A stretch of DNA of 64,000 bases from a virus (lineage: Duplodnaviria; Caudoviricetes), in IMG/VR virus record IMGVR_UViG_3300035670_000009, positions 139,911 to 203,910 of that record. One strand, given 5' to 3'. The notes beneath the pieces are model-generated. The model was given only the letters and a program-made list of their open reading frames with translations, was not told the origin of the DNA and did not search any database. Positions 30,101 through 41,840 of the stretch are shown in pieces (the first letter of the stretch is position 1; every line of letters begins with the position of its first letter). The position numbers and the translations under genes are program-made.

Positions 30101-31561
30101 GCTGTCCATGTGCGGCAGAGAATATTGAACCTCTTCCCGCGGCATGTACTTCATCTTGCCGCCCACGAGAGCCGCGACCATCGGCAGGTCGGTTTTCTCC
30201 TCGCCAGGAAACGCCACGGGCATGTCGGCCAGTTCGCCCGGCGTCTTGTATTCCTGCGCGCCGGTCTGCATGTTGCGCACCGGCGTATAGATCTTGCCGT
30301 CAGAACCCTTGACGGCGCCCCGCGCGAAGCGCATGTCGACGCCCGCTTTGCCCGACTCCGGCGTGCGCAGAAAATCGATGTAGCCAAGGTGGCTGGGCTG
30401 CACGGCGCGGGATTCCACCGGCACTGCGTCCAGCGAACCGATGCCGCCCTCGCCCATACGAGTCACGCGGTTCTGGTGGTCGAAGATTTCGGCCGGGTTA
30501 ATTTCTTCGAGCGAGCTGCCCAAGCCCGAGCCAATCAACGCAGCATTGATCGCCTTGTTGAAGAACCCCGTAGGCACGTGGTCAAGATTTTTCTTCGCCG
30601 TGGCCTTCCAAAGCAACTTGCGCAGCGCCTGCTTGTCTTTACTGAAGCGCTCAGCAATCAGGTCCTCGGGTCCGACAACGCTTTGATATGCCATTGCGTC
30701 GCGGTCGTCTGGATCGGCCTCTTTGCGATTAACGGCAATGAGCTTTTTCGTAATGTCGAGAATCGCTTCGGGGGTAAGGTTCTTGTATTCCTTGCCAAGA
30801 GTGCGCCGCGTAACGTCGGGGTCGAGTTCCATGCGGGCAAACTCTGTCGCAATAGCTTGCTGCTTAGCGGCCGCGTCCAATCCCGGAGTTTGCTTGTAAA
30901 CAAGTCGCTGGTAGAGCTTGTCGAGAGTGCCCGCGTCGCCCTTCTCCATGTTGACGGCGGTGATCTCGTTGCCCCAAGCGCCGCGGATATCGGCATCTTT
31001 GGCGCCGAGCGCTTTGAGCAGCGGCATCAGCGGAATCTGGGCCTGGCCAATGTTAATTTTCATCACGCCGGTCTTCGGGTCGAGGAAGTACCGGTGCATG
31101 CGTCCCTTGCCGGGCAGCACGTTAACGTGCGCCTCCAGCTCGCCGTTGTCTTTCTCGCGCGTGTAGACGCCCGCCTTGAGCCGCATCTGGTGGGCCAGGG
31201 TGTACTCGACGCCCCGGTTCACAAACGTGCCCGAGTCAGTGAGGTACGGCACGTGCGCAATCGTCTGCTGACGTTTGGCGATCGGCTGCCCGGTGGCGTT
31301 GTCGATTAAATTCCAAGTGCCGGTGAGCCGCCGGTGCAACGAGTTTCCGGTAAGAACGGCCCGTTTTTGATCGCGCTTGTTGTAGCGCTCCGGCCCCGTG
31401 TAATTCACGTCCGAAAGTTGGAGCGTGTAGAGATCGTTTTTGATCGGCTCGATCGCGCTGGCGCTTTGGAGCGCGCGATCAAAAATGCCGGAACGCAGCG
31501 CGTGGATGTCACCAAATGCGCGGTGTTGCGGCGGCGTTTGCCCGAGAATCGAGTCTGGCAT
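27191..31561 (-). CDS. rpoB: DNA-directed RNA polymerase, beta subunit fused to beta-prime N-terminal half
   Basis: Beta motifs: TDSGTFV, HQNRVTRMGEGG, RTPESG, QRAIMGSRM, YEDAVVISE, GDKLTGRFGDKGVV, MKLHH. Beta-prime motifs follow: PVLPPLFRP, GRAVI, NRAPVLHR and catalytic GFNADFDGD. Confidence 0.96.
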   Translation of the reverse strand: MPDSILGQTPPQHRAFGDIHALRSGIFDRALQSASAIEPIKNDLYTLQLSDVNYTGPERYNKRDQKRAVLTGNSLHRRLTGTWNLIDNATGQPIAKRQQTIAHVPYLTDSGTFVNRGVEYTLAHQMRLKAGVYTREKDNGELEAHVNVLPGKGRMHRYFLDPKTGVMKINIGQAQIPLMPLLKALGAKDADIRGAWGNEITAVNMEKGDAGTLDKLYQRLVYKQTPGLDAAAKQQAIATEFARMELDPDVTRRTLGKEYKNLTPEAILDITKKLIAVNRKEADPDDRDAMAYQSVVGPEDLIAERFSKDKQALRKLLWKATAKKNLDHVPTGFFNKAINAALIGSGLGSSLEEINPAEIFDHQNRVTRMGEGGIGSLDAVPVESRAVQPSHLGYIDFLRTPESGKAGVDMRFARGAVKGSDGKIYTPVRNMQTGAQEYKTPGELADMPVAFPGEEKTDLPMVAALVGGKMKYMPREEVQYSLPHMDSTFSALSNMLPLKSMIKGQRAIMGSRMFTQALPLNDAEAPFVQSAVVDKDGISHEDEMGEKLGAVKAQFHGQVVSVSPDEIVLRDRDGNKSTVDLYNDMPFNRKTFWHQTPAVQPGDTIKPGQLLAHSNFTDKQGSAALGKNLRVGYLPFRGKVYEDAVVISESAAKKLTSQHMYQHEAEWSDNTHVGKKAFVSLFPSEYDKKTLAQFDDKGAIQKGTVVNYGDPLVLQAKAKETTYGKVHRGRAGAFSNDTITWDHHSPGIVTDVEHTDKGVSVVVKSTAEMQVGDKLTGRFGDKGVVADIVPDHQMPHDKDGSPMEVLVSPLGLISRVNASQVIEAALGKVAAKTGQPFKIKDFDSEKDIIAFAQNELGKHGLSDTEDVIDPETGRKIKGVLTGHRFFMKLHHTSESKGQGRAMGAYTAEGTPAKGGSEGAKRVGMLDLGALLSHGAGKVIRDAKMVRGQANPEYWSQFMSGYTPPLPKVPHVYEKFVNQLRASGINTVRTGTKTHIMAIADKDVDQLAEDREITSSETVDWKGRLKPVPGGLFDEKLTGGHGGNRWAKISLHEPMPNPVMEEPIRRVLGLTEKQFRSVLAGETQLFDKSGPSAIKDALGRINLPKAIEQCREDIKSGRKTLRDAAVRKLGFLKAAESQGIHPQEWMLTKMPVLPPLFRPVSTMGAKKLPLVADANYLYKELIDSNSALKDASGALAEYGNERLGLYDAMKAVSGLGDPTQPKNQERQVKGFLKHIFGSSPKYGTVQRKLLGTTVDLVGRAVITPNPDLDMDEVALPEDKAWEVYKPFVVRGLVRRGLPRMQALQHVEDRNKEAHAELERQMSSRPIVINRAPVLHRYGMMAFYPKLTKNKVMEVNPVITKGFNADFDGDAMQYHVPSTDDAAKEAVEKMLPSKNLFAAANFKAHYIPQAEFQSGIYLASSRVDKRAKPRVYKSRQDAIKAYRRGEIEVDTPVHIVES

Positions 31562-33982: not shown

Positions 33983-34453
33983 TTACCGCCTCCGAAAGAT
34001 GCGGCGCGGCGATACCGGCACCGGAACAACCGGAAAGCCAGAGAGCGGCGCCGCAGGCGCCGCTTTTTCTACTGGGCACGTTCCAGTTACGCAAGGCGCC
34101 GGAGGCGCAGCAACTGGCGCCGGAACAGCAGAGGTCTGCTGCGGTTTAGCGAACGGACCCGGCGGCAAAGTTACTTTCGCTCTAGGCAACTCGCCCGGCG
34201 CGGTTAACGGCTGGCACGTGGGGCATTTCGTCCATTCGTGCCCGTCGCCTGACCGTACTTTGCCGGTACCCTTGCAGGTCGGGCAATTCGGGTCGACGGG
34301 TTGCGGCTGCGGTTTGTCGGGCCGGGCGGTGTCAGGAAGCAGAGCAGCATAAGCAGCCTCTGCAGCGACCATGCCGATATAGTCCGAAGCTGGCGCTGGT
34401 TCGGCATATGGCAACACCGGCAAAAACAGCAGTGTGTAAAGCCAGCCGTTCAT
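33983..34453 (-). CDS. Exported protein with CxxCxGxG..CxxC Zn-finger
   Basis: Start reassigned to ATG 34453 (SD GGGAGG). Signal-like N-terminus, NCPTCKGTGKVRSGDGHEWTKCPTC, Pro-rich tail ending RRIFRRR. Confidence 0.7.
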   Translation of the reverse strand: MNGWLYTLLFLPVLPYAEPAPASDYIGMVAAEAAYAALLPDTARPDKPQPQPVDPNCPTCKGTGKVRSGDGHEWTKCPTCQPLTAPGELPRAKVTLPPGPFAKPQQTSAVPAPVAAPPAPCVTGTCPVEKAAPAAPLSGFPVVPVPVSPRRIFRRR

Positions 34454-34476
34454 GTTAACGCCTCCCACGTGCCAAG

Positions 34477-35502
34477 TTAAATGTTTCCTAGCGCGCCCCA
34501 ATTTTTAAGCGCTTTACGCTTCCAGCCGTTAAAGCTGGAGAAGGCGATCGCGTCGCGGTTCTTGAGGTCGCTCCAGCGCGCCCAAAAAGCGCCAATCGGA
34601 ATAAGCAAGTTCGTGTCCATGATCTTGCGCGAACCGTCATTCCAATTTCCCCAACTGTTGGCCACGCAAATCAAGGGTTCTTTGTAAACGTCGATAATTT
34701 CTGGCCGATCATCTGCCGCAATATAGGCCATAGCGTGCGCCCAGCCTTTGGCGGTGCGTTTCGATACGCCGTTCGCGTCGCGCTCCGCCGAAAAAGACTC
34801 GCCGCCGCACGAGCTGATGCCGTAACCGTTCGCGAGCATGTCCCGAACTTCTTCATAACTATTCAGGACTGTAGTCGACCGAATCAGGTGCTGCTGCCCG
34901 ATCTCGAGCCACGATTTAGGCGGCGTCTTGCTGCCGTAAATACCGGCGGCGCGCGATGAGTACTGCTCAAAGTCGACGTTAATTTCAGGGTAGGCTTTGC
35001 GCAGCCAGAGCCCCGATTCTTTCATCACCACTCGCGCAGCGTCGGAGCAAAACCAACCGTCTCCGCCATGACGACGCCAATTGTAAATCGCTTCAGTGCT
35101 GAGCACGCCGTTGAGTCGGGCCTTGTCGGAGATCTCCGGCGCGCCTTCGACGTTACCAGTCTCCTCGTCGGCCAGTCCGCTAGTAATGTCGGTGCACATC
35201 GTGATCAGCCCGGCGTTCCGGGTTGACCATGAAACACAGTCGCCGCGTCCTTGAGCGCCGCCAGGGAGGCAATCTGGATAAAGCGAAAACACGTCCAGAA
35301 ATGGCGCGCTGAGCTTTCCCTTGCCGGTTTCCTCGAGCCCATAAGCCGAGCAGGCCATCGCGCCCTCGGGAAGTCCGCCCGCTTCGGCAATAGCGGCCTT
35401 GAGCATGTCGGCGCGCTCGGGATCGCACATCGCGCCGACAAAACCGTCTTCGTACGCTTTCTGTACGTCAAACACCGATTCAAAAAATACTTCGCCGTCC
35501 AT
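34477..35502 (-). CDS. Papain-like (C1) cysteine peptidase
   Basis: Catalytic triad motifs QGRGDCVSWS (Cys), WAHAM (His) and ANSWG (Asn). Confidence 0.85.
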   Translation of the reverse strand: MDGEVFFESVFDVQKAYEDGFVGAMCDPERADMLKAAIAEAGGLPEGAMACSAYGLEETGKGKLSAPFLDVFSLYPDCLPGGAQGRGDCVSWSTRNAGLITMCTDITSGLADEETGNVEGAPEISDKARLNGVLSTEAIYNWRRHGGDGWFCSDAARVVMKESGLWLRKAYPEINVDFEQYSSRAAGIYGSKTPPKSWLEIGQQHLIRSTTVLNSYEEVRDMLANGYGISSCGGESFSAERDANGVSKRTAKGWAHAMAYIAADDRPEIIDVYKEPLICVANSWGNWNDGSRKIMDTNLLIPIGAFWARWSDLKNRDAIAFSSFNGWKRKALKNWGALGNI

Positions 35503-35536: not shown

Positions 35537-36034
35537 TCAGCGCGCCGAGTTTGCGATCAGCGTGCAGGCCTCGACAAGCTTTGCGCGTACGGCGTCGTCG
35601 ACAGACTGTACGTCTTTCGGATCGCGCTTTCCTTCGGGATCTAGTTCACGAAGTTTTGCGTCAAACACGGCCTCGATCGCCGCGTCGAGTCCGGAATACT
35701 TGCCACGCATCTCAGGGTCGATGGCATTCTTGAGCGTGTTGGCCTGCCACAGCGCTAGCTGCTCAGTCGTCTTGATGAGTCGCGTCTTTGCGTCGCGCTC
35801 GAGCACGACCACCATAGCTGTGTAGACGCCGCGAACGCGCGCCTTGTCCGCGGGCGACGCATTGGCGAGCAGCTCGACGATCTTCGCGTCTGTCACTACA
35901 GCTGGTTCCGGCGGTACCGGAGTAACTGGAGTGACAGGCGTAACTGGACCAGTCGGCAGTTTGAGAGAAATGCCGTTAGGAAATAGCAGGGCAAAAGCAA
36001 GCAGCAGCCCAGCAGGCCAGATCAGCTTTTTCAT
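35537..36034 (-). CDS. Membrane-anchored/exported protein with PVT-repeat linker
   Basis: Start reassigned to ATG 36034. MKKLIWPAGLLLAFALLFP signal/TM segment followed by PVTPVTPVTPVPP. Confidence 0.7.
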   Translation of the reverse strand: MKKLIWPAGLLLAFALLFPNGISLKLPTGPVTPVTPVTPVPPEPAVVTDAKIVELLANASPADKARVRGVYTAMVVVLERDAKTRLIKTTEQLALWQANTLKNAIDPEMRGKYSGLDAAIEAVFDAKLRELDPEGKRDPKDVQSVDDAVRAKLVEACTLIANSAR

Positions 36035-36039
36035 GGTAC

Positions 36040-36333
36040 TCACCCCGCGTGCGGATGTTTGTGGTCGATCAGGATTTTGAGCAAGAGCGAGCACGCCTCG
36101 ACGCCCTCTTCACAGCCCTCAGCGGCAAACCGGTCCCGAAGCTCGGAAACATCGAGCAGGTCGTCGACGAGCAGATCGCCCGTGACCGGCGGCGCGTCAG
36201 GCGCGACGGGATTGACCACCGGCCGCGGCAATTTGGGCAGCCTGGCCTTCAGCCGGGCATAGATATCTTTGCCGTAAGCTGCGAGGACTACACCGGCAAA
36301 GAGAAGCAAAGCAAGAAGCTGAAACGTAGTCAT
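36040..36333 (-). CDS. Small single-pass membrane protein
   Basis: N-terminal TM segment (FQLLALLLFAGVVLAAYG). SD GGAGG. Confidence 0.7.
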   Translation of the reverse strand: MTTFQLLALLLFAGVVLAAYGKDIYARLKARLPKLPRPVVNPVAPDAPPVTGDLLVDDLLDVSELRDRFAAEGCEEGVEACSLLLKILIDHKHPHAG

Positions 36334-36383: not shown

Positions 36384-37193
36384 TCAATTCTTGGGTACGA
36401 GGATGTACGGCTTTCCGTTGATCACAATGGTGCCGCCCAGCTCAACTGAAGTGTCTTTGAACTTGGAATACGGCACCTTACGTTTGCCGTACAGCTCCTG
36501 AATCTCGCGGACATCGCCGTCCTGTGGTTCAGTAACGTTCGGGTCGTAGTAAGGGGCCATAAGGTTGCCGTTGGCCAGGTGCGGCAGACCCAACGCATGA
36601 CCAAGCTCGTGGCAAATCACAGCCACAGCCATATTGAAGTTCCAGTGCTCAGCTTCGTCGTACATCTGGTCAAGCTGAATGCCCTCATGTACGCCGCAGG
36701 GCAGCTCGCTCCAGGCAAGCGTGCCGCCCTTGCTATCCAGGCCGTGCTTCTGCCCTTTTCCCGATCGCGCCAAAATATTGGCTTTCGTTGGATCCTCGAC
36801 GGGCTCGGGCTCGATGTTGCACACGCGCGCCCACTGGCTGAACGCAATATCAAACGCCTGCTTAGCCTGAGCCGTCGTGATGCCGGGCAGCACAATGTCG
36901 GGATGGTAAGTGATCGCCTTGTGCGGCCACTTGCACTCCGTGTCGCCTGCCGAAAAGTTGAAATCGGGCAGGCCGCAACGACGACGTTCAAGCACATGCG
37001 CCGTGGTTTCGTCGACGCGGCCATCCGGATCCAGCCCGTGAAAACGCTGGTACTCGCGAATGGCGCGCGTCAATTCCGCGCCTTTAATCTGCCGAACCTT
37101 TGCCCAGGTTTTAGTACCGAAGTATCCGAACGCGAATAGTTTTCGAAGGATCTCTTCGGTCGGCAGAACGTGATTTGATGGCATCCTTGCCAT
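36384..37193 (-). CDS. Matrixin (M10/MMP-like) zinc metallopeptidase with PG-binding-like prodomain and cysteine switch
   Basis: AIREYQRFHGLDPDGRVDETT (PG-binding-like), RRCGLPD (Cys switch), KW...ITY, HELGHALGLPH, Met-turn LMAPYY and IQELYG. Confidence 0.9.
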   Translation of the reverse strand: MARMPSNHVLPTEEILRKLFAFGYFGTKTWAKVRQIKGAELTRAIREYQRFHGLDPDGRVDETTAHVLERRRCGLPDFNFSAGDTECKWPHKAITYHPDIVLPGITTAQAKQAFDIAFSQWARVCNIEPEPVEDPTKANILARSGKGQKHGLDSKGGTLAWSELPCGVHEGIQLDQMYDEAEHWNFNMAVAVICHELGHALGLPHLANGNLMAPYYDPNVTEPQDGDVREIQELYGKRKVPYSKFKDTSVELGGTIVINGKPYILVPKN

Positions 37194-37222: not shown

Positions 37223-37636
37223 TTAGTCGCCGGGCGGCTTATACATTTCTCCCAGCCACAACAGCTCGTCGACGGTTTCGTCGTCGGCTTCGTCGCTGAG
37301 ATCGTAAACGGCCTCCACGAGCGGATTCTCTGATTGTAACAGTTCTATTGGGCAGTTGTTGCGCCACAGCTCATTGAGCTTGCGCCGCAACCGTACGCTG
37401 CGGATTGGGCCAATGTTGCGCAAGTCGCGCATGTCCAAGCGAATTTCGTTGGACGGGCGCTTTTCGCGGCAGTGGATTATGACCTGCACGATAATTGAAA
37501 TGACCGAGATCACCAGGAGCGGATTGAACGCGTAGCCCTGCGGAGCACGAAACGCGATTTCATCTTGAAGTCGGTTTCGAAGCCGCGTGAGCGCCGGGGA
37601 GTTCTCGATCCGCTCCTGGAGAGCTTCGGGCGTCAT
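37223..37636 (-). CDS. Single-pass membrane protein
   Basis: TM segment FNPLLVISVISIIVQVII. Start reassigned to ATG 37636, just after the upstream stop. Confidence 0.65.
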   Translation of the reverse strand: MTPEALQERIENSPALTRLRNRLQDEIAFRAPQGYAFNPLLVISVISIIVQVIIHCREKRPSNEIRLDMRDLRNIGPIRSVRLRRKLNELWRNNCPIELLQSENPLVEAVYDLSDEADDETVDELLWLGEMYKPPGD

Positions 37637-37637
37637 T

Positions 37638-38003
37638 TCATTCTTTCTCGGCGCGAATGCGCTCAACTGCGATCGCTTCCATATACCGGTACCGCGCGTC
37701 GATCATGGCTTCTTTCACGGCAACGCGTGCCGAGATGTACTTCCAGACGAGCGCCGCATTCACAATGATCACCTGCGCCGCGCCGATCAACGCAGCAAGG
37801 CTTCGGCTAACCGTCTCGGCATCACTGGCGCTAATCCAACCCAGCACCACGCCCACCGCGATGAGATTTGTGACGGCCGAGACGACCATCGTCCAAAACT
37901 CAGGGGTGAACCAATCGGAACCAGCGGGCGCCACCTCGTCGGCAGCCTGTCCCAACTCGCGCAGCTCTTCGCGAATCGACGCAATCGGCTTCTTTGTCGC
38001 CAT
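37638..38003 (-). CDS. Two-TM holin-like protein
   Basis: W.TPEFW followed by two TM helices and a charged C-terminal tail. SD AGGAG. Confidence 0.5.
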   Translation of the reverse strand: MATKKPIASIREELRELGQAADEVAPAGSDWFTPEFWTMVVSAVTNLIAVGVVLGWISASDAETVSRSLAALIGAAQVIIVNAALVWKYISARVAVKEAMIDARYRYMEAIAVERIRAEKE

Positions 38004-41216: not shown

Positions 41217-41561
41217 TTACGATCCGCCATTGTCGTTACTCCTATCGTGCTCGTGCGTGATTTTTACCTTAATGCCCGCGCCGGAAAGAACTGACCACAC
41301 GACATCGGTCACCGCTGAGCCGCTCATACCAGCGAACACGCAAATGCCAATCAGCCCATAAATGTTCTCTGATTCTCGGTAGTGCTGGTACCAAAGCAGC
41401 GAAATAGCCAAACCCAGGCAGCCCGCATTCAGCATTGCGCTAAACAACCCAAGCCGGGTCATTTTACGAGAAAACCGGAGATATGTGGCCAGCCCCGCAA
41501 ACGACGACACTCCGAACGCGCTCAAAAACACCCAGAACGGATGAGTCAAATCCATAAACAT
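41217..41561 (-). CDS. Holin-like protein (LydA-type, 3 TM)
   Basis: Start reassigned to 41561 or 41555. Three hydrophobic helices with a SFAGLATYL..AGCLGLAI..ICVFAGMSG pattern and a charged C-terminus. Confidence 0.65.
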   Translation of the reverse strand: MFMDLTHPFWVFLSAFGVSSFAGLATYLRFSRKMTRLGLFSAMLNAGCLGLAISLLWYQHYRESENIYGLIGICVFAGMSGSAVTDVVWSVLSGAGIKVKITHEHDRSNDNGGS

Positions 41562-41597
41562 CCTACTGGCCCCCGGCGCGCTAATTGTGCTGCTGAT

Positions 41598-41840
41598 ATA
41601 CCGCAAGCTCCTGGGATCCCCTACCCACAGGTCCGGCCCTGGAAAACCAGGGTTTAGCGGTGACTTACAAAGGCAAATGTTTGCCCCGTGTGGCATTCAC
41701 CGCGCCTCCAACCGTGTTCACGCCATGCTCTGACCACGGATCCAGCTACCCCGGCAACTTCCATGTTGCCGAAATAGCGCCTAACCGATCGGCCACCACG
41801 ACCAGCTTGCGATATTTGCGCACTTTCGCGCGCAAATACT
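41598..41840 (-). ncRNA. Candidate structured non-coding RNA / leader, family unrecognised
   Basis: Nested helices found by eye: 41804-15 with 41598-609, a 14-bp hairpin at 41745-78, 41697-703 with 41657-63, 41637-52, and a GAAA-capped stem at 41813-38. Mismatches are G-U wobbles on the minus strand. Confidence 0.65.

Follow-up and report, generated by a model that had tools for sequence, protein, structure and literature searches.

A probable cysteine-switch matrixin zymogen conserved in a very large family of uncultured phages, with a possible role at the cell envelope during lysis

The latch of matrix metalloproteinases (MMPs) opens when its thiol is oxidised or modified, or when the prodomain is cleaved. 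The established role of the PRCGxPD motif in these enzymes is to ligate the zinc and so impose latency (PMC6949598), and this switch, together with a prodomain resembling peptidoglycan (PG)-binding domains, has been treated as a hallmark of the MMPs of animals, plants and fungi. Karilysin from Tannerella forsythia, the best-studied bacterial MMP, is secreted and carries a 14-residue pro-peptide with an aspartate switch (PMC6949598). MMPs are also recorded in viruses (PMC6949598), and phages go unmentioned in a 2025 survey and phylogeny tracing how microbial MMPs evolved (PMC12587646). Our full-text searches found no literature on phage matrixins with a cysteine switch, and databases already label some of the proteins described below 'Matrixin/PG-binding'. 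Here we describe P0001, a probable zymogen of this kind encoded at 36384..37193 on the minus strand of a 64-kb stretch of DNA (the window), which corresponds to bases 139911-203910 and forms the end of a complete IMG/VR virus record; that record is 203,910 bp long and carries direct terminal repeats.

Insect-virus MMPs act on the insect basement membrane. Those of granulovirus, ascovirus, entomopoxvirus, iridovirus and nudivirus resemble P0001 in being virus-encoded M10 peptidases, and they provided the top fold matches in BFVD, which also held one similar uncharacterised 'uncultured Caudovirales' entry. They differ in that the matches mostly cover the catalytic domain only, and in that these are viruses of eukaryotes, in a context unrelated to phage lysis. 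The endolysin Lyz of phage P1, a signal-anchor-release (SAR) muramidase, is activated by disulfide isomerisation. It is alike in concept, a cysteine holding a lysis enzyme inactive until it reaches or leaves the membrane, whereas P0001 is a predicted zinc protease with a proposed zinc-thiolate latch and no membrane anchor. The nearest functional precedent is the Listeria phage-remnant metzincin Mtz with its TIMP-like lipoprotein Tim, whose envelope action sensitises the cell to lysis (PMC8235301). Mtz differs in being Sec-secreted, in cleaving its lipoprotein partner and in lying outside any lytic phage's own module, and it is not reported in that paper as a matrixin with a cysteine switch (PMC8235301).

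The gene and the parts of its product are placed in the window as follows.

36384..37193, minus strand: pro-matrixin gene (P0001, 269 amino acids plus stop, ATG to TGA); from translation of the open reading frame (ORF), Pfam PG_binding_1 and Peptidase_M10 matches, and the match to proMMP-1
36996..37145, minus strand: PG_binding_1-like prodomain, residues 17-66, a three-helix bundle (PF01471, E 3.5e-9, 37.1 bits against a cut-off of 23)
36963..36983, minus strand: cysteine-switch motif RRCGLPD, residues 71-77, with Cys73; aligned to PRCGVPD of proMMP-1
36486..36932, minus strand: matrixin (M10) catalytic domain, residues 88-236 (PF00413, full profile 1-159 of 159, E 3.8e-19, 69.5 bits against a cut-off of 24)
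36579..36611, minus strand: zinc-binding consensus HELGHALGLPH (H195, E196, H199, H205), read from the sequence; these four residues are invariant in a 93-sequence alignment
36546..36566, minus strand: Met-turn NLMAPYY, residues 210-216; aligned with ALMYPSY of MMP-1 and LMAPYY of echinoderm MMPs
36387..36476, minus strand: C-terminal tail, residues 240-269, ending in a beta-hairpin conserved in the family; from the alignment and AlphaFold2 strands at 255-258 and 261-264 (predicted local distance difference test score, pLDDT, ~65)

Along the protein the motifs run RRCGLPD (71-77), CKWPHKAITY (87-96), GGTLA (156-160), DEAEHW (179-184), HELGHALGLPH (195-205), NLMAPYY (210-216) and IQELYG (231-236), and all those listed in a preliminary description of this locus are present in the reading frame, in the order given there. 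That description had also called the gene phage-encoded and its product devoid of a signal peptide; both statements hold, given that the window lies in a virus record with direct terminal repeats and that no hydrophobic N-terminal segment was found in P0001. The top PDB sequence match is human proMMP-1 (1su3; E 4.1e-19, 72 bits), with residues 38-242 of the query aligned on 38-248 of the chain, from the second prodomain helix to past the Met-turn, a similarity well outside what chance would give. Of the features of M10A membership, the full-profile match to PF00413, HExxHxxGxxH with its catalytic Glu, the Met-turn and the predicted matrixin fold are found, and in the explanation proposed below P0001 is taken, from its sequence, to be a catalytically competent M10A-type matrixin metalloprotease. 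The prodomain is the single match to PG_binding_1 in the whole phage genome.

A model of P0001 computed with AlphaFold2 from the 93-sequence alignment (A1) had a pLDDT of 90.7 and a predicted template-modelling (pTM) score of 0.87. Its prodomain helices (12-21, 38-51 and 62-68) superpose on the prodomains of proMMPs. Foldseek placed proenzymes at the top ranks (proMMP-3 1slm, proMMP-10 9csx, proMMP-1 1su3 and proMMP-9), with E ~1e-15 and target-normalised template-modelling scores of 0.79-0.85 over ~235 columns. In VIA-align, the zymogens of proMMP-9, -1, -3 and -10 matched residues 10-240 of the model at Z 24-25, with a root-mean-square deviation (rmsd) of 2.3-2.6 Å over 205-219 residues, and the catalytic domains alone of MMP-1, -13, -12 and karilysin matched at Z 19.5-20.6 and an rmsd of ~2.0-2.8 Å. 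Since prodomain and catalytic domain superpose together on the proMMPs, the prodomain is predicted to sit on the catalytic domain as it does in the solved zymogens.

Conservation of the switch was assessed in close homologues, the 120 listed of 285 returned by a word-indexed search, and in a distant set of 142 cluster representatives. Cys73 is kept in 120/120 of the former and in 96% of the latter. Nine columns of A1 are invariant (Cys73, W89, L159, H195, E196, H199, G202, H205 and Y235); P76 and D77 are at least 90% conserved, R72 is conserved as well, and the family consensus reads PRCGLPD. Because Cys73 is as strictly conserved as the zinc ligands and lies inside the full motif, it is under selection for function. 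No cysteine switch was found in the sampled chromosomal bacterial M10 peptidases (0/21 hits that gave an ORF), in agreement with the earlier statement that most prokaryotic matrixins lack the motif and with the literature (PMC6949598). The initial proposal of a zymogen with an intact cysteine switch thus gains support from both the conservation of Cys73 and the predicted superposition on proMMPs, and we consider it probable that P0001 is a genuine cysteine-switch matrixin zymogen, in which Cys73 would ligate the zinc and hold the enzyme latent.

P0001 and its relatives depart from classical MMPs in several respects. A hydrophobic N-terminus occurs in none of the 120 listed close members and in 1/142 distant ones, compared with 11/21 chromosomal bacterial M10s; judged by these sequences, the family consists of leaderless, cytoplasmically synthesised proteins. 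To our knowledge, every characterised MMP has a secretion signal. At the structural-zinc His positions, P0001 and the family have K or G, W161 (LAH to LAW) and M177 (DAH to DQM), none of them a ligand; the structural-zinc ligands are a typical vertebrate MMP feature, and their absence from the alignment marks a variant while remaining compatible with M10 membership. The calcium-site positions D153, G156, G157, D179 and E182 are conserved and align in sequence with the S-loop ligands of MMPs. Three further cysteines, C87 (CKWP), C125 (VCxI) and C166 (ELPCG), encoded at ~36696-36935 of the window, are conserved in the family, are absent from animal MMPs and could make up a disulfide or provide a substitute metal site. 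The close clade additionally conserves C194, the residue preceding H195. The C-terminal extension begins with a linker, which in many members is very rich in Pro, and ends with a hairpin of the form G-x-[IV]-x-I-x-G-x-x-Y-x-L-V (also in P0121, P0125 and P0163); this tail is not found in animal MMPs in the alignment, and it could serve in targeting or oligomerisation.

Set beside the vertebrate proMMPs (1su3, 1slm, 5ue3/1l6j and proMMP-7), the phage protein is alike in its three-helix prodomain, (P/R)RCGxPD, HExxHxxGxxH, Met-turn and calcium-site residues, with 27-30% identity and a predicted zymogen that superposes at Z ~24. It differs in lacking a signal peptide, a hemopexin domain and three of the structural-zinc ligands, and in adding the three conserved cysteines and the C-terminal beta-hairpin tail. 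Karilysin (4r3v, 2xs4) likewise presents a matrixin catalytic fold in a prokaryote (VIA Z 20 to the phage model), whereas P0001 has an ~85-residue prodomain, a cysteine switch and no leader.

The preliminary description had treated the gene as a one-off; it proved instead to be a member of a very large phage-specific family. The 120 listed homologues from the word-indexed search are 60-100% identical and ~270 residues long, several of them on ~200-kb contigs. An exhaustive HMMER search of 50%-identity representatives returned 3,328 proteins at E <=1e-3 and 1,175 at E <=1e-10, the top 150 of which score 108-309 bits, against 72 bits for the match between P0001 and proMMP-1 in the PDB. In IMG/VR, 191 viral contigs encode a relative of P0001, and the nearest ESM-Atlas clusters ('Matrixin/Putative peptidoglycan binding domain-containing protein') are 99% and 82% viral, with MMP clusters from plants and chordates coming next. 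When 185,579 species genomes were scanned in a pattern-limited way, one full-length relative emerged (L081; 46% identical, with HRCGMPD), which lies on a phage-like 20-kb contig of unknown genes and an HNH endonuclease, binned in a Planctomycetaceae metagenome-assembled genome (MAG); the remaining genomic hits have 24-43% identity in the catalytic domain only, and about half of them have a hydrophobic N-terminus. PHROGs holds no family for P0001, and since tblastn against 50,697 deposited phage genome records found no match to P0001 or to a more typical member (L077), no cultured relative is available. The genomic context of the clade is viral wherever it is visible, and the contexts of the representative proteins are short, unannotated, phage-like contigs that carry little information. 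One metagenomic protein among the top hits (P0137, 1214 residues) has three HExxHxxGxxH matrixin domains, an arrangement of M10 domains in tandem, and one PRCGVPD motif. For some family members, a weak hint of a planctomycete host comes from the MAG of L081 and from the gene two downstream of the M10 gene in a provirus (L072:10069-10920), which has sub-threshold planctomycete cytochrome-c (PSCyt1) and Cytochrome_CBB3 hits. A region examined for a planctomycete-type nucleoid protein yielded a dGTP diphosphohydrolase domain and nothing else.

The phylogeny proposed earlier as a check was run as a maximum-likelihood tree of the catalytic region of 101 sequences (76 family members, 22 genomic loci and 3 echinoderm MMPs), which is unrooted and thinly sampled for eukaryotes. 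The family and L081 form one split with support of 99/96. Their neighbour is a group of animal MMPs and one Bacteroidota sequence, with moderate support (82/85), and the other bacterial M10s are further off. We draw a single inference from the tree, that the phage clade is probably old and distinct and not a recent capture from animals.

Every large ORF in the window is on the minus strand, and the M10 gene sits within a long co-directional run of genes without clear operon borders. Between window positions 31000 and 42500, a consensus scan turned up no sigma-70-like promoter where 3.4 would be expected, and terminator-like sites were no more numerous than in shuffled sequence, which fits one long unit transcribed by the phage's own polymerase. 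The phage carries its own multisubunit RNA polymerase, whose nearest relatives, at ~32% identity, are those of Salmonella phage Arash and of Vibrio phages. Metagenome runs with DNA near-identical to the phage come from subsurface, aquatic, freshwater and marine samples in at least four studies besides the probable source; there was no RNA run among the listed runs. The genes around the matrixin, with their occurrence among 79 related viral loci where it was counted, are the following.

37638..38003, minus strand: 121-residue protein with two predicted transmembrane segments and a holin-like topology (hydropathy scan; 43/79 loci; no PHROG or Pfam match)
37223..37666, minus strand: 147-residue protein with one transmembrane segment, immediately upstream of the M10 gene (hydropathy scan; 55/79 loci)
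36040..36333, minus strand: 97-residue protein with an N-terminal anchor and a Pro-rich linker, encoded directly downstream of the M10 gene (hydropathy scan; 39/79 loci)
35537..36094, minus strand: 185-residue signal-anchored protein with a Pro-rich linker (hydropathy scan; 42/79 loci)
34477..35502, minus strand: papain-fold (C1-like) cysteine peptidase, 341 residues (AlphaFold2 pLDDT 82.9, Foldseek, invariant catalytic residues)

Within the clade the gene order runs from a 344-residue protein through the two-segment 121-residue and one-segment 147-residue membrane proteins to the M10 gene, and on through the one-segment 97-residue protein, the signal-anchored 185-residue protein, the papain-like peptidase and small proteins to the RNA polymerase, and it is conserved in roughly 40-65 of the 79 loci. 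PHROGs has no family for the small membrane neighbours of the M10 gene. In four distant phages (L068, L075, L077 and L080), which are large and unrelated, the string is a Baseplate_J-like gene, the M10 gene, a two-segment and a one-segment membrane protein, a peptidase and a further one-segment protein (L077:6217-10805), with a sigma-factor gene just upstream. Across the loci, small transmembrane proteins make up 38/57 of the close same-strand neighbours compared with 42/268 background genes (Fisher p = 5e-14). A holin match at 41217-41696 was weak (phrog_6384, E 0.021).

The papain-like neighbour mentioned in the preliminary description was confirmed by fold and by kept catalytic residues. 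The protein encoded at 34477-35502 had no sequence match in Pfam (E 0.01, including PF00112), PHROGs or the PDB, and none of the 120 listed of its 747 homologues carries a precomputed Pfam domain. Foldseek matched its model to xylellain (E 7e-9) and also to procathepsins B and K and papain, zymogen forms being among the best matches. Q84, C89, H256, S283 and W284 are invariant, with Asn in the consensus just before S283 (N-S283-W284), a pattern that fits the papain Gln-Cys-His-Asn(-Ser-Trp) arrangement, and nearby Atlas clusters are mostly viral, related ones having PF00112 in 14-100% of their members. The protein is a divergent papain lineage, and the ~85 residues ahead of the catalytic Cys89 may be a pro-region. 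The gene is present in 62/79 related viral loci and in the distant phage L075, where it has 41% identity (the M10 protein of L075 is only 34% identical) and lies ~1 kb downstream of the M10 gene across two transmembrane proteins, as in this phage; on these grounds we regard the co-occurrence of the two proteases as real. In the L077/L080 type, the same slot holds a 'peptidase' (phrog_16701), which was considered as a relative of the papain-like protein and rejected at an hhalign probability of 0.4%, so the family of the second peptidase varies between lineages. The next gene downstream of the papain-like one, at 33983-34501, encodes a 172-residue Pro-rich protein with a zinc-ribbon-like CPTCKGTGKV...CPTC motif (phrog_12574, E 7.5e-5, unknown function), kept in 46/79 related loci.

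We also searched the complete 204-kb genome for enzymes that digest the cell wall, using Pfam profiles of 14 lysin families (Phage_lysozyme, Amidase_2, Amidase_3, SLT, GH19, GH25, GH108, Muramidase, M15_3, M15_4, VanY, M23, NlpC/P60 and CHAP), and obtained no significant match, which bears on what the M10 enzyme is for. Two sub-threshold hits were set aside: one to Muramidase (PF11860; 14.8 bits, E 0.003; G000:C1:20012-20167, L125:1117-1752) in a 211-residue signal-peptide ORF outside the window, judged probably chance although no other lysin-like signal stands out in the genome, and one to PF01551 (14.5 bits) inside the RNA polymerase, judged chance. Likewise, none of six lysin families was found in 12 other M10-bearing viral records, five of which are >=90% complete; an unrelated phage of 59 kb, bearing terminal repeats, and a provirus of 76 kb are among these records. 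P0001 itself has no endolysin match in PHROGs, the M10 protein of L077 matches endolysin PHROGs only through its PG-binding region, and the M10 catalytic domain of P0001 does not belong to a known muralytic family.

Our preferred explanation, to which we give about an even chance of being right, is that P0001 is a cytoplasmically latent protease that acts on the cell envelope at lysis. With no secretion signal, the enzyme would accumulate in the reducing cytoplasm of the infected cell, where the switch would keep a broad-specificity protease from damaging phage and host proteins. Holin-type phage membrane proteins would then open the inner membrane and let the enzyme reach the envelope. The periplasm is oxidising, and the switch could be opened there by thiol oxidation; alternatively, the prodomain might be cleaved off, perhaps by the papain-fold peptidase encoded nearby, which may serve as activator or as co-effector of the M10 zymogen. 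Activation on release, as put forward in the preliminary description, is plausible; the two-step protease cascade that it envisaged is a conjecture. Once active, the enzyme would cleave peptides of the wall, or proteins that are linked to the wall and hold the outer membrane to it, and would help to burst the cell, filling in wholly or partly for the muralytic endolysin that seems to be missing; the phage family may in this way be standing in for the usual cell-wall-digesting lysis enzyme. A leaderless protease present in the cytoplasm late in infection needs a latch, which would account for the invariance of the switch in the family, and muralytic endolysins need none because their substrate lies outside the cytoplasm. 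Since the latch is stable in a reducing cytoplasm and is opened by oxidation or cleavage, the protein would most likely persist as a zymogen until the membrane is breached and act on the envelope thereafter.

Several points weigh against a lysis-time envelope role. The enrichment of membrane-protein neighbours is dominated by one syntenic clade and amounts to ~7 independent lineages, and lysins were sought with 14 Pfam models, of which GH19 (PF00182) and GH108 (PF05838) had no positive control; many ORFs are unannotated, and one of them could encode a divergent lysin. We know of no M10 peptidase that cuts peptidoglycan, and the PF01471 match is not proof of wall binding, since the same family models the MMP prodomain. 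The AlphaFold2 model is zinc-free and possibly biased by MMP structures learned by the network. Finally, the module is flanked by an RNA polymerase that may be carried in the virion and by a 2H phosphoesterase that may be cargo, and in other phages it adjoins a baseplate gene, a position that fits a virion-delivered entry enzyme equally well.

Such an entry enzyme is the main competing account and, although on balance doubtful, a serious possibility: drawn by analogy to T7 gp16, T4 gp5 and phi6 P5, it would have the zymogen packaged in the virion as head cargo or in the baseplate, activated on ejection into the periplasm and opening the wall locally for delivery of DNA and protein. The M10 gene directly follows the Baseplate_J-like gene in the four distant phages and here lies between the two-chain RNA polymerase and the 2H-SAK protein, both putative virion cargo; latency would protect the virion proteins, and no virion-associated lysin is recognisable in the genome among the families searched. 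The immediate neighbours are however small membrane proteins typical of lysis cassettes, and adjacency to the baseplate does not discriminate, because lysis cassettes also commonly abut tail genes. A K-x-A prohead-protease site considered for removal of the prodomain (IKGAE) was discarded, K37 not being conserved, and this counts against packaging. Rather less probable is a latent protease whose target lies away from the envelope, one that processes or destroys host proteins (takeover or anti-defence) or phage proteins inside the cell and whose membrane-protein neighbourhood is coincidental. Matrixins are protein endopeptidases, P0001 is leaderless and hence predicted to be cytoplasmic, and the long co-directional gene run without clear operon borders would suit this account. 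A zinc-thiolate switch would nevertheless stay closed in the reducing cytoplasm unless the prodomain were cleaved, the conserved calcium-site residues suggest adaptation to an extracytoplasmic setting, and the PG_binding_1 domain, the membrane-protein neighbourhood and the lack of recognisable lysins would be left unexplained.

Two other alternatives concern the nature of the protein itself. It is improbable that Cys73 is a structural or redox-sensing residue rather than an inhibitory zinc ligand, the protein then being constitutively active or the motif merely inherited: C87, C125 and C166 are also conserved and could be partners of Cys73, and the structural-zinc site is remodelled, but the whole RCGxPD context (R72, P76 and D77) is kept and not the cysteine alone, the predicted packing of prodomain and catalytic domain equals that of solved zymogens, and an invariance equal to that of the catalytic residues argues against a relic. 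We regard as very improbable a recent capture of a eukaryote-type MMP as a 'moron' with which the bacterial host could break down matrix proteins of animals or plants. The 27-32% identity to animal MMPs, the plant and chordate MMPs as nearest non-viral Atlas clusters and the moderately supported position beside animal MMPs in the tree (82/85) point in that direction; against it stand the lack of a secretion signal, a deep and diverse viral clade of thousands of 50%-identity clusters that is not nested inside animals, the synteny of the gene, kept within a core module across a clade of jumbo phages, and the subsurface and aquatic habitat.

Beyond P0001, a more general scheme can be sketched that we think unlikely as a whole, in which proteases take the place of muralytic enzymes when these phages lyse or enter their hosts: a leaderless M10 zymogen and a papain-fold pro-peptidase would be stored in the cytoplasm, be armed only once the membrane is breached, by periplasmic oxidation or mutual cleavage, and then cut wall peptides or outer-membrane tethers. 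As a corollary, the MMP prodomain would descend from the wall-binding domain of a microbial or phage wall protease, which would fit the moderate signal in the tree that places the phage clade beside animal MMPs.

Taken together, our results show that uncultured phages of a very large clade carry the complete zymogen architecture and that strong purifying selection maintains it, in an unusual form of phage matrixin that has no leader and no structural zinc site. If the protein is only a latent protease whose target is still to be assigned, this would still be the first clear description of a phage family of cysteine-switch matrixins. If it is a lysis or entry factor, it would found a new enzymatic class among phage lysins, one whose arming, by redox change or proteolysis, is built in; this would matter for the discovery of enzybiotics and for phages whose hosts have protein-rich walls, and it would suggest a specific origin for the MMP prodomain that can be put to the test.

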